From a virus, in IMG/VR virus record IMGVR_UViG_3300005393_000209: a DNA stretch of 64,000 nt; one strand, given 5' to 3'. The notes beneath the pieces are model-generated. The model made no database searches, had not been told where the DNA came from, and was given only the letters and a program-made list of their open reading frames with translations. Shown piece after piece: positions 11,509 through 48,414 of the stretch. Position 1 is the stretch's first letter. The number at the start of each line of letters is the position of its first letter. A program made the position numbers and the translations under genes.

Positions 11509-12327
11509 TTATCTATTCATTATGAAGTTTGCCGCTTTCTCCGCCGATTGAGCCGCTATGATTATAGCATTCTTATGGTTCTCAAGGAATCGAACCCAAC
11601 CGTTTATATATGCTTTGCTATTTTCCAAGTCTTGAGAAATACCCGCTTCCGAGGATAAAAAAGACGCCCCTATCTCCGCGACCAACTCCTCCTGAGAATA
11701 TGTCTGGAGATTGCTCTGATTAATATTCTTTTCCTTTCTTCTGTTAAGCCTTGAGGTATGGAGGGTCGAATGTACTAGTTCATGAAAGAGCGTCACATAA
11801 TACGCATCGCTATTTATAAAAGCTTTTATTGCAGGAATATGAACTTCATCAGTAATTAAATTATAGCATGGAGTGCCGTCAACATGTTTTATGACGGGTT
11901 TATTCGGCATTCCATTAACAACTTTTTCCGCAGGAGTAATAGGATGATTATTCGCATTGACAACAGGTAATTTGTCTTCAATTCCTGTTGTCTGTTCAAC
12001 ATTCCAAACCTTGAGAATTAAGGGGTATTTAGGGACAAGCCTTTCAGACCCATCTTCAAGGATTTCTTTTTCCATCCACCATTTTACGATATTGGAAGCC
12101 TTAGCTCCCTTCTTAATTCTACCTCCAAGAGCGTTACACTGTTTCATCCCTACCCAATAAGGGGAAGAGAATCCTTTCATGGAAAGGATTATTCTGTTTA
12201 TTCCTTTGTATTCTTTTCCCGTGGAAAGATTAGAAGGGGTAAAATTACGCCATTCCTTTTTCCAAGGAATTACACCCTTGGATAAAGCATCAATGAATTC
12301 CTGAGTAATGGTTTCATAGACTTTCAT
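11509..12327 (-). CDS. ardC: ArdC-family ssDNA-binding antirestriction protein with metallopeptidase-like C-domain
   Basis: PW.K.W, YKGIN..IL, HELVHST, YSQEELVAEIGA motifs. Confidence 0.9.
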   Translation of the reverse strand: MKVYETITQEFIDALSKGVIPWKKEWRNFTPSNLSTGKEYKGINRIILSMKGFSSPYWVGMKQCNALGGRIKKGAKASNIVKWWMEKEILEDGSERLVPKYPLILKVWNVEQTTGIEDKLPVVNANNHPITPAEKVVNGMPNKPVIKHVDGTPCYNLITDEVHIPAIKAFINSDAYYVTLFHELVHSTLHTSRLNRRKEKNINQSNLQTYSQEELVAEIGASFLSSEAGISQDLENSKAYINGWVRFLENHKNAIIIAAQSAEKAANFIMNR

Positions 12328-12363
12328 GTTGTTTCTCCCTTTTGTGTTATGTTTTGTGCTTCA

Positions 12364-13932: not shown

Positions 13933-14235
13933 TCATTTCTTTTCTACCCCTTGTTCGTCAGAAAGGATAGAAAGTGTTGTTGTTTTTCTCTTTAACAAAA
14001 TGTCAAGTTTATCCTCAAGCCGTTTCAATCTGGTAACTTCAAAAAATGGTATGCAATCACATTTATCCTGCTGAAGAATTAAGTTCATCTTGTTCTCTAG
14101 TCTCATTACTTGCATCTGCAAGAATCCTGTCTCATACTGTAATTGCCGCAAGGTAACATGCCCCATACAATAGGTAGTCAAAAGGACAGCGCCCAAGAAA
14201 ATAACAATACAACCAATAATTTTTAATATTTTCAT
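13933..14235 (-). CDS. Hypothetical membrane-anchored coiled-coil protein
   Basis: N-terminal hydrophobic helix. Confidence 0.5.
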   Translation of the reverse strand: MKILKIIGCIVIFLGAVLLTTYCMGHVTLRQLQYETGFLQMQVMRLENKMNLILQQDKCDCIPFFEVTRLKRLEDKLDILLKRKTTTLSILSDEQGVEKK

Positions 14236-14777: not shown

Positions 14778-16411
14778 TCTGTTTGCTCCTCCTCCTGAGT
14801 TAAAGTCCAGAGTCCAGTTTGGTCGCTCCATTCCAAGTCAAAAACCGTATCTCCAATATCCCTCCCGCTAATGGTAAGTTCTCCAATCATTTGCTTCCGG
14901 TCTGGTCTCACAAAACTCCAGATTGTGTCAGCTACTCCTGTAATTGCATTAGAACCGGATATTTTCTCAAAATAATCCTCTGTCATTCCTTTTTTATGAT
15001 GATGTACAAGAATTAGAGCTATCCCATGTTTCCACGCTAAATCATGGAGCTTTGAGAGTTCCTCATATTCACGTTCATAAAGTGTTGTTCCAAAAGATGT
15101 ATCCCCTGAGCGGATTTTGGCAAATGTGTCAACGATAACCATTTTAGGAAAGGATGTATTCTCAAGCCATTCATCTATTGATGTAATAGCATCTTCCCCG
15201 GTAGGCCATTTATTCGTAAAGAAAGCATTTGGACTAATTTCCCCTCCATTAGCAATCTTCTTTATCCTTGATTGAAATCTACGGGGAGGGTCTTCCAGCG
15301 CAAGATTTAACACCGCTCCAGAATTTGTTGAGAACTTTTCGCATCCGAGCGCAGGGGTTCCGAGAGTGACACAATGACATAATCCCTGAATCAACCAACT
15401 TTTACCAACCTTAGGAGGCCCGGCTAATACCGTTAATCCTTCAGGAAGAATCCCCTTAATAATCCATGAAGGTTCCGGTAATTTTTGGTCAACCAAGTCT
15501 ACCCATGAAACTATTGTTGTTTCATTCTCTTTCTTCTTATGTTTAGCTTTAACAGGGAGAGCTTCTTTTTTTGAAACCCATGTAGAAATCTTGATTAATT
15601 CCTCCTCAGTTAAAGGAGGTCTACATCTCTGTTGATTTACCTCCCTTAAAGCATTGAGAAGAGGAGCTCCATCAAGGTAAGAGTTTCGGAGTCTAGCCGC
15701 TACTTGAATTAATGACTGATGTCTGGTTCCTTCTGGGAAAAAAGAATCAGACTCTTGAAGGATTTCTCCGATAGATAATGGCGGTTCTTCCAAATCGAGC
15801 TTAAAAAAATCAATAAGCTCATCTAGTTTGTATTCCGCATCAGGATTTAAGGAAACACATCTTGTAAGGAATGGTTCTCCCTTTAGATGAAAAAATCCGG
15901 GGAGCCTCATCACTCGTGGTAAGTCATTAACACTTATATCCCCATGAAATTTTCTAGCAATAGCTCTCTGAACTTTCGAGAACATATCTAGCCTATCGTC
16001 AGAAACCCTCCAATAAACATGGAACTTCTGAGGAGAGGTTTCCACAATCGCCGTAGGACAAAACTCCTCTTTTGTCGCTTCTAGTAACGGCTCAATAGGA
16101 GCTCCATCCAAATCTACAAATATGGCTCTTATACGGGAAATACTTGATTTTGTTCTCCCTCTCCCGTCTCCTGCATTTACCATGAAAAAGATTCCATACC
16201 CCTGCTCATTACTACGGATAAGCCATTTTGACGCCATATCAAAAGTTAGGTATTTATAGGCTCCTGAAAGAACGGAATCCTTTTTGTCTCCAAAAATCTG
16301 AAAGCATAGATTGGTAGGAGGATTAAACAATCCTTTCAAAAAACTAGCAGTATCATTTAAATTTACTTGCATAGTTTCCATTTTCTTTTCCCCATTTTGG
16401 GCATCTGACAA
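14753..16411 (-). CDS. Primase-helicase (RepB-type primase + PriCT + AAA_25 helicase)
   Basis: FVDLD, ETSPQKFHVYW, RVMRLPG; GPPKVGKS Walker A, IVDT, LVHH. Confidence 0.9.
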   Translation of the reverse strand: MSDAQNGEKKMETMQVNLNDTASFLKGLFNPPTNLCFQIFGDKKDSVLSGAYKYLTFDMASKWLIRSNEQGYGIFFMVNAGDGRGRTKSSISRIRAIFVDLDGAPIEPLLEATKEEFCPTAIVETSPQKFHVYWRVSDDRLDMFSKVQRAIARKFHGDISVNDLPRVMRLPGFFHLKGEPFLTRCVSLNPDAEYKLDELIDFFKLDLEEPPLSIGEILQESDSFFPEGTRHQSLIQVAARLRNSYLDGAPLLNALREVNQQRCRPPLTEEELIKISTWVSKKEALPVKAKHKKKENETTIVSWVDLVDQKLPEPSWIIKGILPEGLTVLAGPPKVGKSWLIQGLCHCVTLGTPALGCEKFSTNSGAVLNLALEDPPRRFQSRIKKIANGGEISPNAFFTNKWPTGEDAITSIDEWLENTSFPKMVIVDTFAKIRSGDTSFGTTLYEREYEELSKLHDLAWKHGIALILVHHHKKGMTEDYFEKISGSNAITGVADTIWSFVRPDRKQMIGELTISGRDIGDTVFDLEWSDQTGLWTLTQEEEQTECLFQQVA

Positions 16412-17117: not shown

Positions 17118-17552
17118 TTAGAATCCAAATTCAGGTTCACTTTTAACTGCTTGTTTTTCCTTTATTCTTGCAAGCGAAACCTTTTCAAAAATGTTGACAT
17201 ACTGCGTTTTTCCGTTAGTTCTAGTTTCCAGTAAGAGGGTAGTTCCCTTAAATTTTGGGAGTTCATTCTCTATATCTTTCCCTTTTGCTGTTAACCCTAA
17301 GATTGACAAATCCTTTTTAAATCGAGCTAAAACTTTTTCTCCCTGCGATAAATATGTTGGTTTCCTGATTGAGTATCCTTCATATTCCCCATCTACTACC
17401 GTAAAATGCCACCACATAACTTTTCCATATTCCCCATCGGTAAGCTCATAATCATCAAAACGGGCAATATATTTCCCATCAGGAACTCTTGGAGGGTAAA
17501 TCTTCACCTCCAGTTTGTCGTATTCTTCAACTAGCTCATCAAAAAATCCCAT
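17118..17552 (-). CDS. DUF669-like putative ssDNA-binding protein
   Basis: VPDGKY, F.VVDGEYEG motifs; acidic/aromatic C-terminus; coupled to exonuclease. Confidence 0.65.
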   Translation of the reverse strand: MGFFDELVEEYDKLEVKIYPPRVPDGKYIARFDDYELTDGEYGKVMWWHFTVVDGEYEGYSIRKPTYLSQGEKVLARFKKDLSILGLTAKGKDIENELPKFKGTTLLLETRTNGKTQYVNIFEKVSLARIKEKQAVKSEPEFGF

Positions 17553-19153: not shown

Positions 19154-19234
19154 TTGACAACCATAAAATTTTGTATTACGGTTTGTCATAGATTATTTAG
19201 TGTTGAATGTATCAGGCATCAGACATTTTGTCAA
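19154..19234. promoter_or_regulatory. Pair of face-to-face sigma70 promoters (genetic switch region)
   Basis: + TTGACA(19154)-17-TACGGT; - TTGACA(19234)-17-TACATT. Confidence 0.7.
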
Positions 19235-19274
19235 GTTAAAAAAACACACAAGACAAAAAAAAGGAGAGACAAGG

Positions 19275-19820
19275 ATGGAAAAGAAGTATAGCTGGAGTCA
19301 CCCTCTCCGGAGACTCATGATGCTCCGGTTCCCTTATGAGCACAAAACTAATTTCTACTCCCGAATAGGGGTAAGCCGCGGGTTTATGTCACGGCTCTCT
19401 AATACTCCTGATACAGGAGTTACCGTCAAGACGTGGCAGGAGATACTTGAAAAAGCAGGAGTTAAGAATCCTGTACTTATACAATGGCTCCTTTTCGGAG
19501 GAGAACCCTCTAAAAACATACTGAGACTCCTCAGGAAATATCATGGAAAAATTACAGATATTCCAGATATAAATTATGAAATATTCGTTTCCCGCTTGAA
19601 CCATTTCAGGCTTGAGGATGAAAGTAAGAATAGCTTTATAATCCGCTTGGGGATTCCTGCTCATGTATGGGAACAATGGGAATTTAGCCATACAAAGGAA
19701 ATCTCCCCTTCGGAAGTGAAGAGGATTTGCGATGTTATAGGGATAGATTACCGCTCTCCAGAGGGAGTTTGGCTAATGTTTTCCTCAAAAAATCCTCCAC
19801 CTAAAACAGTTAACAATTAA
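19275..19820 (+). CDS. Putative repressor with two XRE-like HTH domains
   Basis: Two repeats of F..R.G.....S/W......I.....G....WL.F; divergent from the replication operon. Confidence 0.55.
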   Translation: MEKKYSWSHPLRRLMMLRFPYEHKTNFYSRIGVSRGFMSRLSNTPDTGVTVKTWQEILEKAGVKNPVLIQWLLFGGEPSKNILRLLRKYHGKITDIPDINYEIFVSRLNHFRLEDESKNSFIIRLGIPAHVWEQWEFSHTKEISPSEVKRICDVIGIDYRSPEGVWLMFSSKNPPPKTVNN

Positions 19821-19979
19821 TAATTTATTAACCTAATACTGCAATTTTAGCTATTTTACTGAGTTTGTCGCTATTCTCCAAAAAACAAAACCGCAAGAAG
19901 TTGAGAACCCCATCGAAGAAAATACCCTGCCTACCCCACGGGAGCGGAAAAATAACATCCTGAAATAATGCTCACTGGA

Positions 19980-20190
19980 ATTCTTATTTTATATTTTTAT
20001 AAATTATATATGTACTGTACTTATATATTATATATATTATATTAGTATTGTACTTATATATATTATATATATTATATTATATAATATATAATATTATATA
20101 TTATATTATATCCTTCATCCTGTATATATTTCTTTTCTTTCTTTTTCTTTTCTTTTTCGTTCTTTTTCTTTTCTTTTTCTTTCTTTTCTT
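19980..20190. repeat. AT-rich TATAT low-complexity tract plus pyrimidine tract; candidate replication origin
   Basis: Nearly pure A/T 19985-20110 with repeated TGTACTTATATA, then T/C tract. Confidence 0.55.
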
Positions 20191-20222
20191 TACGCCAACA
20201 CAAAATGCCAAACGTATCAGAC

Positions 20223-20580
20223 ATGTCACGCCACATCACACATAAGTTGCTGACATCAACGAAAAGCCACCTCAGAGGCTCGCTGTTCCATTTTTTCCTC
20301 AAGGTAATACCAACATAGCCAACAGGTATAAAAATCCCTCAGAATTGAAAAAAGACCCCTTTTCGTTGAATTACGTTTTTTTGGTTATAAGCTTATTTTT
20401 CTTTGTTCCATCTGTAAAACATTATGTCACGCCTGAGAAAAGTTACAGACATCAAAAATAAGGGGTATAGGAGGCTCACTGTTCGATTTTTTGTATAAAG
20501 TAATACCAACATAGCGGGGAGAGTATAAAATGCGTTAAAATTGAAAATAGACCCCTTTTTGTTGATTTCAGGTTTTTTAT
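20223..20580. repeat. Imperfect tandem duplication, two ~160-bp units with ~200-bp period
   Basis: Shared blocks ATGTCACGCC, GACATCAA, GAGGCTCRCTGTTC, GTAATACCAACATAGC, AATTGAAAAWAGACCCCTTTT in the same order. Confidence 0.85.
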
Positions 20581-20598: not shown

Positions 20599-20627
20599 TT
20601 GACAAATGATACAGTTTGTCCTATGGT
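20599..20627 (+). promoter_or_regulatory. Sigma70 promoter of nucleotide-metabolism operon
   Basis: TTGACA-17nt-TATGGT, with a GACAAA/TTTGTC inverted repeat across the -35 and spacer. Confidence 0.7.
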
Positions 20628-25742: not shown

Positions 25743-25767
25743 CTAATTGAGAAAAGGAAAAACAAAC

Positions 25768-25920
25768 ATGAAGAACAAAAACATAGTCTTTTCTCAGGAT
25801 TTCCAAAAAAGGACAACTATCCGGATTTTAAAAAACAGAATTGAAGCTTGTCCAAAAATTGCCTATCCAACATTATGTCTGTTGAAGGAAATAGACAACG
25901 TAACCGGGGAGGGGGAATGA
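25768..25920 (+). CDS. Small hypothetical protein (50 aa, not in track)
   Basis: AAAAGGAAAAACAAAC leader; ATGA overlap with next gene. Confidence 0.55.
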   Translation: MKNKNIVFSQDFQKRTTIRILKNRIEACPKIAYPTLCLLKEIDNVTGEGE

Positions 25921-26246: not shown

Positions 26247-26453
26247 ATGGATGAAATCTATCTCATAATATGGTCAATACTTCTCTTGCTGATTTATATC
26301 CTTCCGGGGATTATTGCAAGGAGACAGAAAAAAGAAAATGCTGACGCAATATTTATCCTTAACCTCCTGCTTGGATGGACTTATGTTGGTTGGGTAATAG
26401 CTCTTGTTTGGGCATTAATGAAAGACAAGAAAGAAACATGTAAAACAGTTTAA
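26247..26453 (+). CDS. imm: Superinfection immunity protein (T4 Imm family)
   Basis: Y.LP.IIA.R......IF.LNLLLGWT..GW..ALVWA; own promoter at 26178. Confidence 0.9.
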   Translation: MDEIYLIIWSILLLLIYILPGIIARRQKKENADAIFILNLLLGWTYVGWVIALVWALMKDKKETCKTV

Positions 26454-26462
26454 AAGCTTTTA

Positions 26463-26516
26463 AAATCCCTGCGTCATTTCTTTTGTTTCTCCTTTAAAAC
26501 GCAGGGATTTATTTTT
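26463..26516 (+). terminator. Long-stem terminator with a 24-nt pyrimidine-rich loop
   Basis: AAATCCCTGCGT...ACGCAGGGATTT followed by ATTTTT. Confidence 0.7.
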
Positions 26517-26598
26517 CCTAAAATCCTTCCCTTTTTTATTCAAAAAAACCCACAATTTTAAGAAACCTTTCCGCCATTTAGTGTTCGTATTGTTAGCA

Positions 26599-27414
26599 AT
26601 GCCGAACATTAAACAAAACACTATTATTTGCGGGGATTCTGCCATAATTATGCTAGATTTTCCTGATAGTTGTGTTGATTTAACCGTGACCAGTCCGCCT
26701 TACGACCAACTAAGACGATATAACAACTACCAGTTTAATTTTCCAGCCATTGCTAACCAGATTTTTAGAGTGACAAAAAACGGTGGTGTCCTTGTGTGGA
26801 TTGCCGCTGACCAAACAATAAATTTTAGTGAAACAGGAACATCCTTTAAACAAGCCCTCTATTTTAAAGAAATAGGCTTCAATCTCCTTGATACAATGAT
26901 TTATGCAAAAGAAGCTGTAGGAGCTTGTGGTTCCAAATATGCTTATAATCAAGCTTTTGAATATATGTTCGTCTTTGTGAAGGGTAAACCAAAAACATTT
27001 AATCCCATCAAAACAGCCCCAAAACAAGCAAACAAAAGGCGCATGTATCAGGTTAGTCGCAGCAACAAAGAAGGATTCATAAAAACCCATATTGCAAAGA
27101 CTGCCCCACCGGAAAGTAAAAAAACGAATGTTTGGTCATATAGTATAGGATTCCGCAACTCCAAAATCCCCACAGGACATCCTGCTGTCTTTCCCCTCAA
27201 CCTAGCAAAAGACCATATCCTTTCATGGAGCAACGAAGGTGATTTGATTTTAGACCCCATGTGCGGTTCTGGAACAACCTTAATAGCGGCATCACAACTC
27301 AATAGAAACTTCATCGGGATAGAAATTAGTGATAAGTATTGCGAAATCGCTTCCAACAGACTAAAACAGGAAACTTTTTCTTTAAAAAACGCACATAATG
27401 TCTATGGTAGCTGA
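26599..27414 (+). CDS. Beta-class N4-C/N6-A DNA methyltransferase 1
   Basis: TSPPY, HPAVFP, LDPMCGSGTT. Confidence 0.92.
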   Translation: MPNIKQNTIICGDSAIIMLDFPDSCVDLTVTSPPYDQLRRYNNYQFNFPAIANQIFRVTKNGGVLVWIAADQTINFSETGTSFKQALYFKEIGFNLLDTMIYAKEAVGACGSKYAYNQAFEYMFVFVKGKPKTFNPIKTAPKQANKRRMYQVSRSNKEGFIKTHIAKTAPPESKKTNVWSYSIGFRNSKIPTGHPAVFPLNLAKDHILSWSNEGDLILDPMCGSGTTLIAASQLNRNFIGIEISDKYCEIASNRLKQETFSLKNAHNVYGS

Positions 27415-28799: not shown

Positions 28800-30230
28800 A
28801 TGCAGGAAACCGAAAAGAAAACTCCCCTGATTAATCTCTACAAAGGGGATTGTGTTGATGTTTTTAAAACTCTCCCGGAGAACTCTATCGACGCGATAGT
28901 AACAGACCCTCCTTATGGCATAAGGTTTATGAATAAAAAATGGGATTATGAGATTCCAAGTGTAAAAATATGGGAGGAAGCTTTCCGATTACTAAAACCG
29001 GGAGCTTATATCCTTGTCGCTTGTGGAACTCGAACATATCACAGAATGGTTTCCAATATCGAGGATGCAGGGTTTCAAATCAGGGATTGTATCGTTTGGG
29101 CCTATGGAAGCGGTTTTCCAAAAGGTCTCAATATATCCAAGGATATAGATAGACAACTAGGGTGCGAGAGGGAAGTGGTAGGCAAAGCAACCAGACATGG
29201 TGGCGGTAATTCACAAATAATAAAAGGTGATTATAATCCTGACATCACCATACCCTCATCACCCCTCGCTAAACAATACGACGGGTATCATACAGCCCTT
29301 AAACCAGCTATCGAACTTTGGTGCCTCGCCATGAAACCAATATCCGAAAAAAATATCGCACAAAATGTCCTCAAATGGGGAACAGGAGGAATTAATGTCG
29401 ATAGTTGTAGAATACCTACAAAGGATAGTTTATCCGGAGGAAATGTATCCGGGCAATATAAAGCTTATGATGGTTGGGACAGACCGTGGAGGCATGACGC
29501 CGAACATCTAAAGATAATAAAAGAAATAGCTAAAGAAAAAATAAAATTAGCGGAGGAGTTAGGGAGGTGGCCAGCAAACCTTATTATTGAGAACAGTGAT
29601 GAAGTTAAGGAGCTTTTCCCAATAACAAAGAGCGGAAAAATGAATCAGCACGTTAATGGCGGACAATATAATATATTCGGAAAACAGTATCCTCGTCATG
29701 TCAAAACTCATGGAGACTCAGGCTCCGCCTCCCGCTTCTTTAAGCTTATCCCTAATGATACATCAAGGGAAAATTGTATCCAATTCAGTAAGCTTAAGCG
29801 TCATTTTAGTTACGGGGAAGAATCAGACTTATCGGCGGCCAGATTCTTTGCCTCATTTTCACTTCATGATGATAAACGACTTATTTACTGTTCTAAAGCG
29901 TCTCCCAAAGAGAGGAACGAGGGTCTCAATGAACTTCCTGCTGAGAATAATATGAGAGTTAACGCTCCAAGAAGTAATGAACAGGAAAAATTTCAGACAA
30001 AACACCGGAATAATCATCCAACAGTTAAGCCAATATCTCTTATGAGGTATTTATGCCGCCTAGTCACTCCTCCTGAAGGTATTATCCTCGACCCCTTTAT
30101 GGGGAGCGGCTCCACCGGGGTAGCTGCATTCATGGAGGATTTTAATTTTATCGGGATAGAAATTAATCCAGAATATTTTATAATATCAAAAAAGAGAATA
30201 GAGTATTATAAAACAGGAAAAGCCGCCTAA
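28800..30230 (+). CDS. Beta-class DNA adenine methyltransferase 3 (long phage type)
   Basis: TDPPY, YGSGFPK, GRWPAN, HPTVKP, LDPFMGSGSTG. Confidence 0.93.
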   Translation: MQETEKKTPLINLYKGDCVDVFKTLPENSIDAIVTDPPYGIRFMNKKWDYEIPSVKIWEEAFRLLKPGAYILVACGTRTYHRMVSNIEDAGFQIRDCIVWAYGSGFPKGLNISKDIDRQLGCEREVVGKATRHGGGNSQIIKGDYNPDITIPSSPLAKQYDGYHTALKPAIELWCLAMKPISEKNIAQNVLKWGTGGINVDSCRIPTKDSLSGGNVSGQYKAYDGWDRPWRHDAEHLKIIKEIAKEKIKLAEELGRWPANLIIENSDEVKELFPITKSGKMNQHVNGGQYNIFGKQYPRHVKTHGDSGSASRFFKLIPNDTSRENCIQFSKLKRHFSYGEESDLSAARFFASFSLHDDKRLIYCSKASPKERNEGLNELPAENNMRVNAPRSNEQEKFQTKHRNNHPTVKPISLMRYLCRLVTPPEGIILDPFMGSGSTGVAAFMEDFNFIGIEINPEYFIISKKRIEYYKTGKAA

Positions 30231-30275
30231 AAAGACGGCTTCCCCTGACAAAAACAAAAAAGGAAAAACAAACAT
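30212..30275 (-). ncRNA. Candidate ~60-nt antisense sRNA (promoter 30280-30308, terminator 30220-30241)
   Basis: TTGACA-17-TATCCT; U-rich body complementary to early-gene SD leaders; hairpin pairs fully only on minus strand (G.U). Confidence 0.55.
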
Positions 30276-30325
30276 ATAAAGGATATCTTACCCTGACTAT
30301 GTTGTCAACAAGGATGTTAAAATTA

Positions 30326-30352
30326 AAAAGGCTCCTCTCAGGGAGCCTTTTT
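30326..30352. terminator. Bidirectional terminator
   Basis: AAAAGGCTCC...GGAGCCTTTT. Confidence 0.75.
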
Positions 30353-30355
30353 AAA

Positions 30356-30562
30356 CTAAGCATAAAGCTGATACCAATCCTTTTCACCTATCCTGAAGAT
30401 TACATTTCCAACCTCATCGCAAGCTATTCCTCCTTTAACCGCCTTCTTTTTGTCTACCATATAGTATTTTGTCTTCCCAACTTGCTTTGCTTCTGCTTCA
30501 ACTTTTGTCACTTTGCCGCTCTTTACGAATACTATTGTTTCTTTTGTTACTGGGAATTCCAT
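30356..30562 (-). CDS. Small early protein
   Basis: Own promoter (-35 at 30622-30627), AAGGAGAAACAAA leader, terminator. Confidence 0.65.
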   Translation of the reverse strand: MEFPVTKETIVFVKSGKVTKVEAEAKQVGKTKYYMVDKKKAVKGGIACDEVGNVIFRIGEKDWYQLYA

Positions 30563-30702
30563 TTTGTTTCTCCTTGAAGTGTGTTTTGTTAAGAACCCTT
30601 ATAATGCACGACTAAAAGCGATGTCAAGAAAAAAATACATGAAACAACTTATTTTGTATAAAAAATCTTTAACTTTTTGTTCCGTACGCGTACGCGCACA
30701 TT

Positions 30703-30730: not shown

Positions 30731-31078
30731 CTATACTATCCGTATAGTATCCGCATGGGAGGAAAAGAGAGGCCACAACTCCTGTCTTATTGAGGAGTAT
30801 TCTATTTCCCCTTTATTCCTGTTATTAACAAATAATACAGGGAAGCCGCAGCCTTCAACACGTTTTTTCTCGTAGATAACCTCACTGTCTCCTCCGAAAG
30901 CTATCTTTTTCCCTTTCCAAAACGCCTCAAAAGCTATTCTCCCTACTTCTTTACAAACAACCGTGAGATTATCTGTAAGCCTGAGCGCCTCGACATTGCT
31001 TTTTGAGTTTTTAATTGATTCCATTGTAGCCGCTAATTCTCTTTTTGACTTTGTGAATTCCATTCTCATGTTAGGCAT
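30731..31078 (-). CDS. Early hypothetical protein
   Basis: Own promoter TTGACA(31147)-17-TAATTT and AAGGAGAGACAAA leader. Confidence 0.65.
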   Translation of the reverse strand: MPNMRMEFTKSKRELAATMESIKNSKSNVEALRLTDNLTVVCKEVGRIAFEAFWKGKKIAFGGDSEVIYEKKRVEGCGFPVLFVNNRNKGEIEYSSIRQELWPLFSSHADTIRIV

Positions 31079-31165
31079 TTTGTCTCTCCTTTGTGGTTTT
31101 GTTTCGTTCGTGATTTCAAAATTACATTACAAAAAACATTTTGTCAAGAAAAAAATACATTCAAC

Positions 31166-31462: not shown

Positions 31463-31475
31463 CCTTTCTTAAAGT

Positions 31476-31545
31476 AAAATTAAAGCCGCTCCTGAGGAAG
31501 GTAGCGGCTTTATAGTGTAGTGAGTTGGGAGGTAACTTTTAGTGA
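31476..31545 (-). ncRNA. Candidate ~70-nt sRNA or attenuated leader with anti-SD sequence
   Basis: Promoter TTGACA(31579)-17-TACTAG, ACCUCCC body, AAAGCCGCU...AGCGGCUUU hairpin. Confidence 0.4.
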
Positions 31546-31845: not shown

Positions 31846-32277
31846 CTATTTTTCCTCGAATTTAATCCTTATTTTCTTGTCGTGGGCATACAACAAATAA
31901 TCATAAAAATCCTCCAAATCAAGCTTCTTTCCATTTATTACAGGTATATTGTTCTCCAGCGTGAGGAACTGCTCTTCTCCAACAGAAACCTTTCCACCCT
32001 CATAAAGAAATCCTATTATCCCAACCCCGAAATCCTCGATTCTCGACAATAACCTCATGCCTAAGCTATCCTCTATATCCTGAATCTTCTCCCTTGCATC
32101 CGAAATCCCTTTTCCCGCTTCACGAACTTTCTCAGTATTCCCTCCAGAATAATCAAAATCCCTTAAATCCTTAAGTATCGAGGATATGTTTTCATTACAT
32201 TCCTCAATATGTCTCCTCTCCTCAATCAAGTTTACTATTTCCATTGAAATTCGCTCTAAACTAGCCGTGGCTGACAT
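31846..32277 (-). CDS. Hypothetical protein (coiled coil + L..GG domain)
   Basis: Own promoter TTGACA(32338)-17-TACATT and SD. Confidence 0.6.
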   Translation of the reverse strand: MSATASLERISMEIVNLIEERRHIEECNENISSILKDLRDFDYSGGNTEKVREAGKGISDAREKIQDIEDSLGMRLLSRIEDFGVGIIGFLYEGGKVSVGEEQFLTLENNIPVINGKKLDLEDFYDYLLYAHDKKIRIKFEEK

Positions 32278-32475
32278 GTTCTCCCTCCTTTGTTAATATC
32301 TGTTTGTTAAATGTAAAAGGAAAAAGACAAAATGTCAACAAAAGGAGACAAAAAAAAGGAGCCAACAGACTCCTTTTTCCTTAACAGGTATTATTCACGG
32401 TTTATAAGAAGGAAACTCCCTAAAAATATTAAAAATATTGTAATCCAACTCGAATAATAAGCAACATCAACAATC

Positions 32476-36155: not shown

Positions 36156-36268
36156 AAAAAAGAAAACCTCCCGAAAAAAAATATATTGTTATTATGAAAA
36201 AAAGCTTGACAAAATGTTCCATGCACGATATTTGTAGCTTCACATTACAACACAAAGGAGAAACAAAA

Positions 36269-36556: not shown

Positions 36557-36612
36557 TATACCTTTCCCCGGAGGATTTCTCCTCCGGGATTTTTTTAAAA
36601 AGGAGAAACAAG

Positions 36613-36996
36613 ATGGAAGAATTCTTCAGAAGAGCTAGAAAGAATAAGCTAATTGCGGAGTGCGTCGAGGAGCTCTATGAGCTTTGGGTTGAATTAGGAA
36701 AACCAGAACCTCCCGAAGGGCCATCCACCGAGTTTAGAGGAGCTCCTGCTTTTCTTCATGAGGATGAAATCGAGGGTCTCTCTCCAGAGGATACAGAAAG
36801 GGAAGTTCAGCGATATAATGACTCCTTGGTTCAACTCCTTGAACTCTGCGATATAAGACATATAGGGAATGGAGTTTGGTATACCCAATATAACAAAGGA
36901 ACTAATGAATGGCAGGAATATATAGAGAAATCTTGGGAGATAGCTCATGATTACTTCACAAATTATATGTTTGATTTCTTTGTAGATACTCTATAA
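36613..36996 (+). CDS. Acidic hypothetical protein
   Basis: AAGGAGAAACAAG leader; terminator 37020-37060. Confidence 0.65.
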   Translation: MEEFFRRARKNKLIAECVEELYELWVELGKPEPPEGPSTEFRGAPAFLHEDEIEGLSPEDTEREVQRYNDSLVQLLELCDIRHIGNGVWYTQYNKGTNEWQEYIEKSWEIAHDYFTNYMFDFFVDTL

Positions 36997-37136
36997 AAAT
37001 AGTCATTCACCGTTAAGAGCCTTAATGGGGTAGAATCCTCATTAAGGTTTTTTATTTTTTTTAAAAAAAGCTTGACAAGAAAAACAGTTTGCATTATATA
37101 ACAGACATCAAACAAAAACACATAAGGAGAAACAAA

Positions 37137-37361
37137 ATGGAGCTCGTAAACGTTGAAAAAATAACCGCCGAGGAAATGATGGAGGAGCTTTTAAAGGGTT
37201 TTTACTTTTCAACATACAAGGGAGTTATTGAGGTAAATGTCTCCGCTCCTATCCTTTACCACAAAAAGGGACGCCAAAAAGAGATAATCGGGGTAGAGGA
37301 GATAGATAAAATAATAAAACACTCAAAAAAAACAGGTAAGCCTATAAAAAAGGCTGCCTAA
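37137..37361 (+). CDS. Early hypothetical protein
   Basis: Promoter at 37072; AAGGAGAAACAAA leader. Confidence 0.65.
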   Translation: MELVNVEKITAEEMMEELLKGFYFSTYKGVIEVNVSAPILYHKKGRQKEIIGVEEIDKIIKHSKKTGKPIKKAA

Positions 37362-45300: not shown

Positions 45301-47849
45301 GTCGTCAGAATATCCCTTGGATAAGGAGGATTATTAATCCAACTGGATAATGCCGCTCCAAGATTAGTCAGAGACGTTGTATAAGCCGTTAGCTCCGTAG
45401 TTATATTCAACCCCTCCGCCCAATCAATTATCGTCTGCGACTCTGCTAGAAGCTGATTATACGCGTTCTCAAGGGAGTTGGCCTCCGCTAATGTTATTAC
45501 ATCAGAAGTAAAAGATTCCTCTACTTCGGAGGAGAGGTTTCCTATGCTTTCATTAATTCCATCAATCTCCCCATCAATATATTCTGTTAAAGCAGATGAG
45601 ACATTTGAATCGAGCTTGTTAGTTATTGCATTCTGTAAAGCAATTTTACTCGTTTCAACCCCTTGAAAAGCAGTTAAAATATCGCTTCTCTGAGAAGAGC
45701 TTATACTTTTGGGATATGATGTTTGATTTATCCAATTAGCTAATATACTCTGGAGATTCGTAATCGCCGAGGAATAAGCCGTTTTCTCAGTAGTGATTCC
45801 AAGAGAATTAGCAATAGAAATTATATCGCTAGATTCCCCAAGAGCTCGTGTAAGAGAAATCTCAAGGGAGTTTGCCTCCGAAACCGTAATATAGTTATCC
45901 GATGCGGCATTGTTAACTGAAGTCTGGAGAGATGAAATACTGTCAGAGTATTCCGAGAACTCCTCATCTACATAATCTTGAAAATCTTCAAGTGAAACCT
46001 TGACATTGTCGGCTGTTTTTGCGCTTATCGCATTTATAAGGGAAGCTTTACTAGACTCAACCTCAATAAATGCGTTTTGGACTCCTGAGCGCTGTTCTGA
46101 CGTTATATTTAGCGGGTAGGTAGTCTGGTCTACCCAAGGAGCAATCGTGGCTCCAAGAGCCTGTAATTTGCTCTCAAGCGTTGTTTTTTCCGTGGTTATC
46201 TCAAGGAGTTCGGCAGAATCAATTAAATCCTCACATTCACTCTCTAATCTAATAAAACTGAGCTTCAAGTTCTTCGCTTCAAGGGAGGTAATTTTTAAAT
46301 CGGAGGAAAAATCTCCTAGAGCATCATTTAGATTTTCTAAGGATTCATTAACGTCGCTTATCTCATTATCAACATAAGATGTAATATCCATCGCGGAGAT
46401 ATTCACAATAGCATCATTTATTGCAAGATTTAACGCTGATATTTTTTGTGATGTATCCTGAAAAGCATCTTGAATATCGGTTCTCTGCTCTTGAGATATG
46501 CTTTTGGGGAATGGCCCTTGAGTAACAGCTAATAAGAGAGTTTGAAGAGCATTAAGCGAAGTTTGAAGCGCTGTTTTTTCTGAAGTAATGCCGAGGGTCT
46601 CCGCAAGATTTATTATATCATCTGCTTCTCCAGTAATTTGCGTAAAATTCAGTGTTAATGAATTAGCTTCTGCTAAGGAGATAAAACCATCAAGGGAGAA
46701 TTTATCAATATTCTCATTAAGCGTATCAATTGTCTCGTTTATCTCGCTAAACTCTTCAGTTACAATCTCATTGAGACTGTCAATTGAAAGTTGTAACCCT
46801 GAGGCTCTTACTTCATCTATTTTTGAGATTAGCTTTGCCCTATAACTCGACTCGTTATATATAGCATTCCTTAATACTATCCTGTCATTTTCTGATATCA
46901 AAACAGGATAGGATGAAAGATTTATCCATTTATTTATTTCAGTTTGAAGTGAGGTTAGAGCATTTTCATAATCGGTTTTCTCAGTAGTAATTTTGAGAAC
47001 TTCAGCAATATCAATTATATCTTCTGATTCCCCGATAACCGCTAGAAGTGTTGCTTCAAGAGCTTTCGATTCATCATAAGAGAGATAAGCCGAGGATGAA
47101 AAACTTTCAATATCTTCACCTAGAGAAATTATTAAATTATCTATTGCCCCTAATCTCTCATCAATATCATCCAAGTCATGATAAACCCCATCAAACGCTA
47201 ATTCATTAGCAAGCGCATGATTAAATAGGGACGTGTCAAGGGTTAAAATCCTGCCGTTTGTATCAGTGACTTGATTTGTATATCCTTCCAAGAACCCCTC
47301 AGGAAGATGGAGCCACGGTTCGTCGTCCTCAAGCATAGAGTGTCTATATCTGCGCCAAACGTAACCGTCCCACATTACCCTAATGTCATGATAAACAATA
47401 ATATGTGCGGCTCCAATATGGTACCCCGGCCGCGGAAGTTCTTCCTCTCCCTCAACCATTATGTAAAAAATAATAGGTTTCAGTTTTTGTGTTTCTGTAT
47501 CCCAATAATAGAAGTCTTTGTCTCTTGCATCGTATATTTCCTGTCCCGCTGGAGGCCAATTCTTCCGAGGAACTCCCCAAATCTCAAAAGGATTTCTTCG
47601 TGGCAAAGGAATTTCATTAATAGAGTTTGCAAACCCGTCCATCTCAAGGAGCCGATAATCCTCTCCATCCCAAAAAACCGCAGAATACCAATCCCTTACC
47701 CATCTAGTTTGACCATAAAAATTCCCCTCAGGCGATTGCCACCCAAGAGCACGGGAATAAGTTTTTCCATCTCCAAGGAGAGGAGCCTCTTCCCCCTCAG
47801 GAACGTAATAAAATAAATGTCCCTGCTTTGCTAATTCTTCATCAAACAT
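42378..47849 (-). CDS. Large tail fibre/adhesin with five ~130-aa helical repeats, repeated beta domains and a CBM-like domain
   Basis: Repeat IT..EA..L.....E...II..A..L.IT.EKT; NGSFTGSTGWTLGSGW CBM-like segment. Confidence 0.7.
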   Translation of the reverse strand: MFDEELAKQGHLFYYVPEGEEAPLLGDGKTYSRALGWQSPEGNFYGQTRWVRDWYSAVFWDGEDYRLLEMDGFANSINEIPLPRRNPFEIWGVPRKNWPPAGQEIYDARDKDFYYWDTETQKLKPIIFYIMVEGEEELPRPGYHIGAAHIIVYHDIRVMWDGYVWRRYRHSMLEDDEPWLHLPEGFLEGYTNQVTDTNGRILTLDTSLFNHALANELAFDGVYHDLDDIDERLGAIDNLIISLGEDIESFSSSAYLSYDESKALEATLLAVIGESEDIIDIAEVLKITTEKTDYENALTSLQTEINKWINLSSYPVLISENDRIVLRNAIYNESSYRAKLISKIDEVRASGLQLSIDSLNEIVTEEFSEINETIDTLNENIDKFSLDGFISLAEANSLTLNFTQITGEADDIINLAETLGITSEKTALQTSLNALQTLLLAVTQGPFPKSISQEQRTDIQDAFQDTSQKISALNLAINDAIVNISAMDITSYVDNEISDVNESLENLNDALGDFSSDLKITSLEAKNLKLSFIRLESECEDLIDSAELLEITTEKTTLESKLQALGATIAPWVDQTTYPLNITSEQRSGVQNAFIEVESSKASLINAISAKTADNVKVSLEDFQDYVDEEFSEYSDSISSLQTSVNNAASDNYITVSEANSLEISLTRALGESSDIISIANSLGITTEKTAYSSAITNLQSILANWINQTSYPKSISSSQRSDILTAFQGVETSKIALQNAITNKLDSNVSSALTEYIDGEIDGINESIGNLSSEVEESFTSDVITLAEANSLENAYNQLLAESQTIIDWAEGLNITTELTAYTTSLTNLGAALSSWINNPPYPRDILTTDRTAIKNALNDVINKKVALTKKIDDLTIDGVTTQFNSRISEAMVEFVSKTEIGIFGSIKGSTGAIWVSGELLLADESDSVKNNYTVLNYVNNQIVPTYIQPNTEYYIYLANYKSPAFNIPGLPPSGDIPGTPARDFRGNLFLSQTPDYNGTLGSTSPGINARIVGKCETDGTAYADGGPFFLREINMSFIGKNFDLSDAFTEYSDFQLQYSDTNTLTFQKFDGTKGLIYVAGQLIQLTDGREVSRTDSRVTWNNGVIALDSSTISPDTLYHVYLCNNEDSYNFNSINPSTNRPYQEGELGYNASLDKRKKLFLSTKTPDHKLFDESYPGYFAREVGRIKTDGAGLFKYAADISSIRQLSLNPTHLDGLAECAFTVESATQFKIHKKKGTTGLIYVGGRPVQTYERTHANVHVVNTSDILYEYNELTPENPLSATSIHVSELVGIPIHVYLANKTCPETEPDENSVWGSLSNRIFCSLEEPVNGYLSANYSGNNARWLLTFKTIPSDMGNERVTNGSFTGSTGWTLGSGWSYNSDKQYVQHSSGTAALSQNVNVSAGMIIQIIFNLSVSSGTLTVSCGGDTSITYGVSGNHSAFLSCLNTNSLQFIPSNDFVGYIDNVSVREALSGNFLGSIFEETIIGPEITIIDDNILSATNTWSSLKIQQELNNLTNKISAASGFDSQKQFGLPLKMEFYDSTRIRIYSTLSSGQTCSVILPNLAIREVTSGGVLQTISGSPSTFYYVYLYENSIEISTSPPETTYERLAIRGAGVLVGYLGLSASNTLAGNWNTFSLYGEPERTWSANITTYNNPSISLPGIVIPPNKQATASRTGKSYYEGKWVCSYNGNFWGRCKDSVTLGSKTTNFVWASEYTPDENGYYISYTAPGYRRVLNINNPDYYLEGNPEGVSTPPFNVTISFNYPTLSQGVHTGNIILQHSSGAWNSWSSHGGYYHVVTEPLRYTSANGQIVVTRQAGSW

Positions 47850-48154
47850 TAAACGCTAACACCTATTGTTGGCCCCGGTAGCCCTAAATTACTTGGAACT
47901 GCCGATTCTGAACCATTAGCTTGCATGTTTCTATTAAATATCTCGAATCCTTTATGAATGCTTGCATCCGTGTCGCCGATAGGAATGGGCATTCCGGTAA
48001 CTCGCCAACATCCTTGTTCTCCTCCTGTTCTAATATAAGTCCATAAATCCCAAGCCACGGCACTCCCCGCCGCTTGTGAAGCGGCTTCACTACATCCGTT
48101 AGTTACTATCCCCAAATCACCCCCTGCTGTGGAGGCTGAAATATACTTAGCCAT
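47849..48154 (-). CDS. Cys/Trp-motif small protein, paralog 3
   Basis: True start MAKYIS at 48154 via TAATG coupling. Confidence 0.7.
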   Translation of the reverse strand: MAKYISASTAGGDLGIVTNGCSEAASQAAGSAVAWDLWTYIRTGGEQGCWRVTGMPIPIGDTDASIHKGFEIFNRNMQANGSESAVPSNLGLPGPTIGVSV

Positions 48155-48414
48155 TACGCCACGGGCCCCGGTAAATCTTTCAAGGATGGAACTGAAGGAG
48201 ATGTTGCATCCTGCGACATCCACCAATTAATCCTTTCCATCCCGGCATGAACTGAATTATACGTGTCTTTAATATCAATCCTGACTCCCGTTACTCCCCA
48301 ACATCCTATACCAATGGGGTCCCAAGCATGCGCTCCGCTTCCCGCAACACCTCCGCAACCGCTTGGGCCTATTTTAGAGTTCCCTCCCGGCGCACTTCCA
48401 AAATACTTAGCCAT
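48154..48414 (-). CDS. Cys/Trp-motif small protein, paralog 2
   Basis: MAKYF...GC...WD...CW...DT..S.H.G.E..N..M...VPS...LP. Confidence 0.7.
   Translation of the reverse strand: MAKYFGSAPGGNSKIGPSGCGGVAGSGAHAWDPIGIGCWGVTGVRIDIKDTYNSVHAGMERINWWMSQDATSPSVPSLKDLPGPVA

Follow-up and report, generated by a model that had tools for sequence, protein, structure and literature searches.

Two phage RNAs act in the manner closest to that considered here. According to the available parts of the literature on phages P1 and P7 (PMC12197685, PMC8198154), the c4 antisense RNA is a phage RNA that pairs around the ribosome-binding site of a phage mRNA, blocks translation and serves immunity. Sar of phage P22 is described, in the accessible portions of its sources (PMC12197685, PMC7968456), as a short phage RNA with its own promoter that covers a ribosome-binding site and blocks initiation. 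Two bacterial RNAs share elements of this mode of action, again as described in the available sections of the papers concerned: GcvB is a multi-target RNA whose seed silences ACA-rich, translation-enhancing leaders (PMC3879156), and LhrC of Listeria uses CU-rich single-stranded sites to pair with target mRNAs and impede their translation (PMC4132741). In the accessible parts of the reviews, each characterized phage antisense RNA has either one phage target (Sar, c4, OOP, aQ) or host mRNAs as its targets. Many further phage non-coding RNA candidates have been catalogued without functions, to judge from the available part of one such catalogue (PMC10914365). In the open-access literature, review supplements aside, we found no phage small RNA reported to shut down a group of genes of its own phage by way of a leader they have in common. 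We describe here a locus that may encode such an RNA.

The phage and its setting

The window (the 64,000-nt stretch of IMG/VR record IMGVR_UViG_3300005393_000209 that was analyzed) holds most of a tailed-phage genome, including terminase, portal, tape measure and baseplate genes. It also encodes a tyrosine integrase, RecT, a primase, a ribonucleotide reductase, a ThyX-like protein and three methyltransferases. DNA near-identical to the window is present in wastewater and bioreactor sludge runs, and two sludge-run strains compared with it are ~98-99% identical. More distant relatives, with terminases at 55-59% identity, are contigs binned with Syntrophaceae, Desulfomonile, Thermodesulfobacteriota and Verrucomicrobiota.

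We infer a temperate lifestyle from the integrase, a gene of the superinfection-immunity family (26247-26453, plus strand; PF14373, E 9e-18) and face-to-face promoters at 19154 and 19234 beside an HTH-like gene. These sigma-70 promoters (19154-19234) separate the RecT/replication operon from the HTH-like gene and are a possible lysis-lysogeny switch. Between the HTH-like gene and a promoter at 20599, positions 19960-20200 are very AT-rich and contain TATA repeats as well as a pyrimidine tract. Two blocks of ~100 nt that are related to each other (20270-20400 and 20470-20580) come next, and the stretch is a possible replication origin. An ArdC-like anti-restriction gene (11509-12327, minus strand) forms a stand-alone promoter cassette in this phage with its three DNA methyltransferases.

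A predicted small RNA gene on the minus strand

A reading of the DNA made without database searches (the sequence-only reading) had proposed a stand-alone small RNA gene behind a minus-strand promoter, TTGACA-17-TATCCT. The promoter is there, with its -35 hexamer at 30308-30303 and its -10 hexamer at 30285-30280, separated by 17 nt. A generic promoter scan on its own is not enriched in the window (40 against 30.3 ± 5.4), but the strict pattern TTGACA-17-TANNNT has 8 sites there, where 100 shuffles average 0.79 and have no more than 4. Seven of these eight promoters have an SD-led start 26-92 nt downstream. The promoter at 30308 is the sole exception, with no such start within 140 nt, in agreement with the proposal that no protein gene follows it; the frame from the AUG at 30275 stops only beyond the terminator, leaving the transcript without a protein-coding frame. 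We think it highly likely that the locus is a real transcription unit.

The unit is predicted by folding to end in an intrinsic terminator (30247-30207, minus strand) comprising a 15-bp stem with three G.U pairs (hairpin 30247-30214), a UUUU loop and a U tail. The hairpin has a folding energy of -25 kcal/mol on this strand (z -6.7, 0 of 200 shuffles), as compared with -15.8 kcal/mol on the plus strand, where the three G.U pairs become A.C; the U tail likewise follows on the minus strand only. This strand asymmetry (-25.0 against -15.8) is the largest among the 10 hairpins examined, a set in which small asymmetries do not always match the transcribed strand. The strand preference that had been claimed is thus pronounced, although the plus-strand fold is still real (z -4.9).

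The predicted RNA runs from 30273-30275 to the U tail at about 30210-30207, both ends being inferred, which makes it ~64-69 nt long and not the ~60 nt originally suggested. Its sequence is AUGUUUGUUUUUCCUUUUUUGUUUUUGU, then the hairpin, then UUUUAUA. Within the proposed range of start sites, canonical spacing favors +1 at G30273 over A30275; this choice has little effect on the pairing results below. The 28-nt arm ahead of the hairpin (30275-30248) consists of 21 U, 4 G, 2 C and 1 A, with four UGU, and its 26-28 nt are unpaired in the minimum free energy and centroid structures alike.

A second terminator-like hairpin, bidirectional by folding, lies directly upstream of the small RNA promoter (30323-30354) and would terminate both the minus-strand mRNA of the 30562 gene and the plus-strand mRNA of the convergent DNA methyltransferase gene (N6_N4_Mtase, 28800-30230). 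Since this hairpin would already end the upstream gene, the one at 30247-30214 is superfluous for that job. The methyltransferase transcript has no U-tailed terminator before 30323-30354 and therefore overlaps the entire small RNA, so that the methyltransferase mRNA is probably antisense across the whole unit, a point the sequence-only reading had overlooked. An arrangement in which the 3' end and 3' UTR of the methyltransferase gene are cis-antisense to the small RNA raises the possibility that its role is to trim or destabilize that end, by pairing or convergent transcription, with the likeness to leaders discussed below a by-product. Complementarity here is perfect by construction and makes this the top site (-35.6), and the small RNA terminator overlaps the final methyltransferase codons, where the plus strand has no U tail. 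We nonetheless consider this reading unlikely, because it leaves unexplained both the arm's mirroring of an over-represented leader class (12 copies against 0.32) and, from the sections that follow, the 18-nt match at 25768 and the second anti-leader loop. The overlap would also fit a trans-acting repressor that has the 3' UTR as its sponge.

No Rfam family reaches its gathering score in the window. The lowest-E match is RsmY, on the plus strand (E 0.025), which brings in a set of other possible products of the locus: a plus-strand CsrA/RsmA sponge displaying GGA, a leaderless 29-residue peptide, or a 69-codon ORF. A weak plus-strand promoter, TAGAAA-16-TATAAT, is found at 30157-30184, and ACAAGGATGT at 30308-30317, which we take to fit the CsrA consensus, is present in 3 copies against 0.16 expected. 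However, the RsmY score of 17.4 bits is far below the cut-off of 57 for membership of the CsrB/RsmY/RsmZ sponges, the GGA count is ordinary (5 in 165 nt, equalled by 30% of random windows), another copy of ACAAGGATGT is an SD-ATG look-alike, and the fold has no GGA-loop hairpins. As for peptides, the hydrophobic 29-residue frame from AUG 30275 and the 69-codon ORF (30387-30178) are both open, but both cross the terminator and are missing from the protein collection, and the 29-mer has no Pfam match. We give these alternative products very little credence.

A leader class shared by small cassette genes

The leader class AAGGAGA(A/G)ACAA..AUG marks small, promoter-driven cassette genes in this phage. 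Its core motif, AGGARARACAA, occurs 12 times in the window where 0.32 are expected. Seven copies are at gene starts (19275, 25768, 30562, 31078, 36269, 36613 and 37137) and three lie inside or opposite coding sequence; the remaining two, in the small RNA arm and in a hairpin loop at 26475-26498, are complements of the motif and fall in non-coding units that look transcribed. Consistent with reuse of such blocks, 7 of the 10 30-mers with a second copy of at least 18 nt are promoter or leader repeats of the phage. Genes of the class are mostly small orphans immediately downstream of strong promoters, and the protein neighbors of the small RNA locus are near-orphans too. Most predicted targets have no family, and no antirepressor was recognized among them.

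The leaders of late genes tend to be of another type. Among gene starts picked by hand, late and structural ones have a GGGG-type SD in 12 of 29 cases and AAGGAG in 2 of 29, as against 6 of 46 and 13 of 46, respectively, for other starts. Predicted target leaders contain 3.1 ACA per 30 nt compared with 0.49 in 65 others, a comparison that is partly circular. Every one of the 10 differences within the 13-nt core of the six leaders of the class is compatible with G.U pairing, and the arm core (30260-30271) pairs fully with AAGGAGA(A/G)ACAA when G.U is allowed. The top strand being A-rich favors this wobble direction regardless, and on sequence grounds this counts against the trans reading.

Two further likenesses were seen. 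A strong SD and ATG on the minus strand at 48005-48026 (AGGAGGAGAACAAGGATG), within ORF 47849-48223, resembles the 19275 leader and is a probable internal or true start. The end of the 37137 gene (37328-37360, KKTGKPIKKAA) is loosely similar to the methyltransferase end plus the small RNA hairpin at 30205-30250 (AAAACAGG-AAGCC...GGCT), by chance or through shared origin.

The top strand of the arm aligns in register with the cassette leaders, and the phage evidently reuses promoter and leader blocks, which suggests that the locus might be an orphaned relic: the plus strand would be what is left of a leader whose cassette gene was lost by deletion, perhaps along with remnants of a Sar-like cis-antisense promoter, and the RNA, if made, would now be functionless. 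The absence of demonstrated conservation among relatives (below) also counts toward such an origin. Yet no plus-strand TTGACA promoter feeds the would-be leader and its start reads ATA-TAA, whereas the minus-strand promoter, its spacing and the minus-specific terminator are all intact; moreover, a second, differently built element would target the same leaders. We hold this explanation to be improbable, though deserving of some weight.

Predicted pairing with leaders

The starting observation had been that bases 30258-30275 are identical to the SD/start region of the 25768 gene (25752-25769). This 18-nt identity is exact, and among 3000 shuffles of each kind a match as long arises once when dinucleotides are preserved and never when only mononucleotides are; a start at G30273 would cut it to 16 nt. 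The fit of the RNA to the AAGGAGAAACAA and AAGGAGAGACAA leaders through G.U wobble is also as described. The nine best bare duplexes among 74 starts are with 25768, 37137, 32277, 14777, 19275, 12327, 31078, 36269 and 36613, and the best value among 29 late or structural starts is -15.8.

Net binding was ranked among 24 mRNAs using the full RNA and native mRNA ends. The best predicted target is then the leader of cassette gene 37137 (37111-37137, plus strand; -23.5), followed by those of the ArdC-like gene 11509-12327 (12325-12358, minus; -22.1), gene 31846-32277 (32276-32300, minus; -21.8), gene 30731-31078 (31078-31106, minus; -19.8), the HTH-like, possibly repressor gene 19275-19820 (19247-19277, plus; -19.6), cassette gene 36269 (36241-36268, plus; -18.4) and the neighboring cassette gene 30356-30562 (30562-30590, minus; -18.4). 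The leader of gene 36613 (36596-36613, plus) is a weaker predicted target, with -17.1 bare and -13.6 net. Two non-class starts, 23288 (-17.0) and 35012 (-16.9), come close behind 25768 in net binding, and of the three non-self sites in the window that bind most strongly, two (16148-16175 and 17147-17172) fall within coding sequence and away from gene starts. The predicted pairing is bipartite, with a core on the SD and spacer and the distal GUUUUUGU on the ACA-rich 5' block.

The ORF at 25768-25920 (50 codons) had been put forward as lead target. Its SD/start (25749-25770, plus strand) does form the best bare duplex, an uninterrupted 20-bp helix across SD and AUG (-24.3), but falls to eighth of 24 once mRNA structure is included (-17.9 net). 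It is the sole exact 18-nt match, and the ORF, which extends into the next start, has an entry in the protein collection, so that one might suppose that the RNA represses 25768 and, via coupling, 25917, with other leader fits incidental. Besides the net ranking, what speaks against this is that the distal arm pairs with 37137, 19275 and 12327 and not with 25768, and that the ORF has no homologue except itself. We regard a single target as distinctly unlikely.

Shuffled controls show how far the multi-target fit exceeds expectation. In a class-free test, the six best of 75 gene starts average -22.5 against -17.3 ± 1.3 (0 of 200 shuffles), or 1 of 200 when 35-nt leaders are used. The six AGGAGARACAA leaders average -19.2 against -14.6 (58 of 3000 shuffles), and 28 of 1500 shuffles that keep UCCU do as well. 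With five class leaders, class separation (AUC) is equalled by 21 of 400 shuffles and the promoter-proximal AUC by 46 of 400, while 68 of 400 equal the arm in shortest helix and 43 of 400 in mean helix; across the class-specific tests, p is ~0.02-0.17. A fully pairing 12-mer is held by 498 of 3000 shuffles (119 with a CC core). Since many shuffles pair well, the composition of a U-rich arm with CC explains much of the fit. Among 646 T-rich 28-mers of the phage, 10 bind the class equally well, and these are eight leader opposite strands, the second anti-leader loop and the arm itself. Overall, the anatomy supports a stand-alone minus-strand small RNA gene well, and the pairing statistics lend support to its predicted antisense action on SD/start regions.

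The UUCCUU core within the U-rich arm is a generic anti-SD, and known phage small RNAs act on host mRNAs, as set out in the available part of one review (PMC12197685). The main targets might accordingly be host mRNAs with A-rich AAGGA leaders, as part of host takeover, with the phage leaders bystanders; the fit, however, reaches into the phage-specific ACAA spacer, and we see scant likelihood of this.

Similar tracts occur elsewhere. On the minus strand at 32315-32381, a terminator tail and the spacer of the next promoter carry anti-leader-like U/C tracts (-18.2 against the class). Between promoter 31579 and gene 31453, at 31472-31545 (minus), lie a terminator-like hairpin and, ahead of it, a C/A-rich arm containing ACCUCCC; this element is a candidate attenuator or third small RNA. 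As a third anti-leader RNA (31545-31513) it was rejected, its pairing to starts being no better than that of shuffles (93 of 200).

A second anti-leader element

A further element overlooked by the sequence-only reading sits behind the superinfection-immunity-like gene 26247-26453. It is a hairpin (26463-26510, plus strand) identified by folding and complementarity, with a 12-bp stem, a 24-nt open loop (26475-26498) and a U-rich tail. Its loop, an exact complement of AAAGGAGAAACAAAA, fits the leader class at -19.9 where shuffles give -11.2 (4 of 3000 do as well), statistically a better fit than that of the small RNA arm. A blind survey of 56 terminator-like units in the window placed it at the top. 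The promoter and gene ahead of it suggest that the plus strand is transcribed; folding is equally good on the minus strand (-19.0), which would display a decoy leader. As far as sequence can tell, that a single leader class should be mirrored by two elements built in different ways is the strongest internal argument against chance.

Strains and relatives

Two strain contigs (X1 and X4) cover the small RNA locus at ~98-99% identity. X1 has 32 substitutions and 17 gap letters, the latter all outside the small RNA locus; the comparison, in which the arm is masked as a repeat, covers the places of all but 7 of the X1 substitutions and of a minority of the X4 and X10 differences. In run X10, one contig reaches across 30147-30447 with 19 substitutions and 17 gap letters. 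Both X1 and X4 retain loop 26475-26498 with one extra T within its T run, and in both the methyltransferase gene next to it is replaced: 58 other letters stand in place of 26516-27383, which holds one of the tandem methyltransferase genes. This suggests that the gene is a mobile or recently gained copy.

Beyond the strains, no homologous small RNA locus was found across IMG/VR, JGI metagenomes, GenBank phages and terminase relatives. The exact 33-nt pattern has 0 matches in IMG/VR, a neighboring-gene search confirmed 0 of 13 candidate relatives, and a search of JGI metagenomes with ThyX yielded 1 of 134 candidates, at 25% identity. Terminase relatives at 53-59% identity comprise three IMG/VR records and five MAG contigs; AGGARARACAA is absent from these records and MAG loci, which are fragments mostly without the cassette region. 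None of the 55 terminator-like units surveyed in G003 fell below z -2.1, a weak negative because the same survey masks the small RNA of the window under a spurious ORF. Ten loci with an anti-leader plus promoter pattern were all judged to be chance, none having a terminator-bounded unit, as were eight short matches in GenBank phages.

Proposed mechanism

The predicted RNA mirrors the ribosome-landing sequence common to seven to nine phage genes, and thus likely represses their translation as a group. We put the chances that the ~65-nt RNA acts in trans to repress the translation of multiple cassette genes of its own phage at somewhat better than even. Host sigma-70 polymerase would start at 30273-30275 and stop in the U tail. 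The U-rich 5' arm would base-pair in trans with AAGGAGA(A/G)ACAA..AUG of seven to nine phage mRNAs and block ribosome loading, UUGUUUUUCCUU covering the SD and spacer with U opposite A or G. Because U can face both A and G, a single arm suits three variants of the leader. Close to the mRNA 5' ends, the ACA-rich block would be paired by the distal GUUUUUGU.

A possible operator bears on the timing. The palindrome ACA-WWW-TGT overlaps or follows the -35 of promoters 19234, 20599, 31147, 31579, 32338, 34250 and 36206 (palindromes at 19223, 20611, 31136, 31568, 32327, 34239 and 36209) and is also found at one internal TTGACA (14006); copies outside the seven promoters are at 13995, 20419, 25870, 27393 and 29360. 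It is absent from promoters 30308, 30627, 37072, 12392, 26178, 19154 and 3507. The palindrome is likely the operator of the HTH-like protein 19275-19820, whose HTH identity comes from a sub-threshold Pfam match (E 0.022) and from Atlas neighbors at 0.93 with few shared features. This protein has no PDB relative, and its single-sequence AlphaFold model is unusable (pLDDT 39.8).

With no palindrome at its promoter, the small RNA would be produced each time host polymerase transcribes the phage. Escaping the putative 19275 repressor, it would build up and, with a delay, brake the strong immediate cassette genes, among them 37137, 30562 and the ArdC-like gene, whose promoters lack the palindrome too. 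It would hold the cassette genes down in a lysogen, and loop 26475-26498 on the immunity-gene transcript probably performs the same repression. The fully complementary methyltransferase 3' UTR could titrate the small RNA. Judged from the sequence, the arm's fit to the leader of the putative repressor (19275) sits badly with a simple lysogeny role. A plausible origin is an orphaned Sar-like antisense unit, which is compatible with a present function. More tentatively, and we think doubtfully, the shared leader code AAGGAGA(A/G)ACAA, read by two unrelated RNAs, one linear and tuned for wobble and the other a loop on the immunity-gene transcript, might be an RNA-only master switch over the gene class that also blunts a superinfecting sibling phage.

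In T4, the available part of one report (PMC1702504) has the RegB nuclease switching off immediate genes. If the mechanism proposed here is true, it would be an RNA solution by which phages that use host sigma-70 only shut off their strongest immediate genes. The unit is also tiny, with E. coli-type signals, and would then lend itself directly to use as an orthogonal regulator of several genes.

Comparison with known systems

The locus has the make-up of a trans-encoded small RNA, with its own promoter and intrinsic terminator (by consensus and folding) and no protein-coding frame. Its predicted seed exceeds shuffles in the class-free test (0 of 200) and for the class (58 of 3000), weaker measures not being significant.

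With c4 the predicted RNA shares its presumed action at a phage ribosome-binding site. However, c4 displays its pairing sites in loops, which loop 26475-26498 resembles, whereas the predicted small RNA is a linear arm plus one terminator hairpin. In addition, c4 acts on the ant/icd operon that contains it, while the predicted RNA lies far from most of its predicted targets, seven to nine unlinked leaders. No c4 match is present in the window at the Rfam gathering score, nor among 32 + 4 sub-threshold matches. The likeness to Sar is that of a short phage RNA with its own promoter covering a ribosome-binding site, but Sar is cis-encoded opposite a single target, ant, and the targets here would be met in trans; a Sar-type cis arrangement fails, as the opposite strand reads ATA-TAA and no ORF starts there.

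Of the bacterial RNAs, LhrC is similar in its mode of pairing but is a host multicopy family under LisRK control and not homologous; loop 26475-26498 has a weak, sub-threshold Rfam likeness to it (23.8 against 110 bits). GcvB is host-encoded and acts on amino-acid genes, in contrast to the phage-encoded RNA here, and Rfam gives no sequence homology between them. The pairing of a G/U-rich seed with ACA-rich leaders that characterizes GcvB is nevertheless predicted here as well, with four UGU in the arm. The predicted small RNA is a member of none of these families; it would work like c4 and Sar, with a GcvB-like seed and LhrC-like CU-rich sites.
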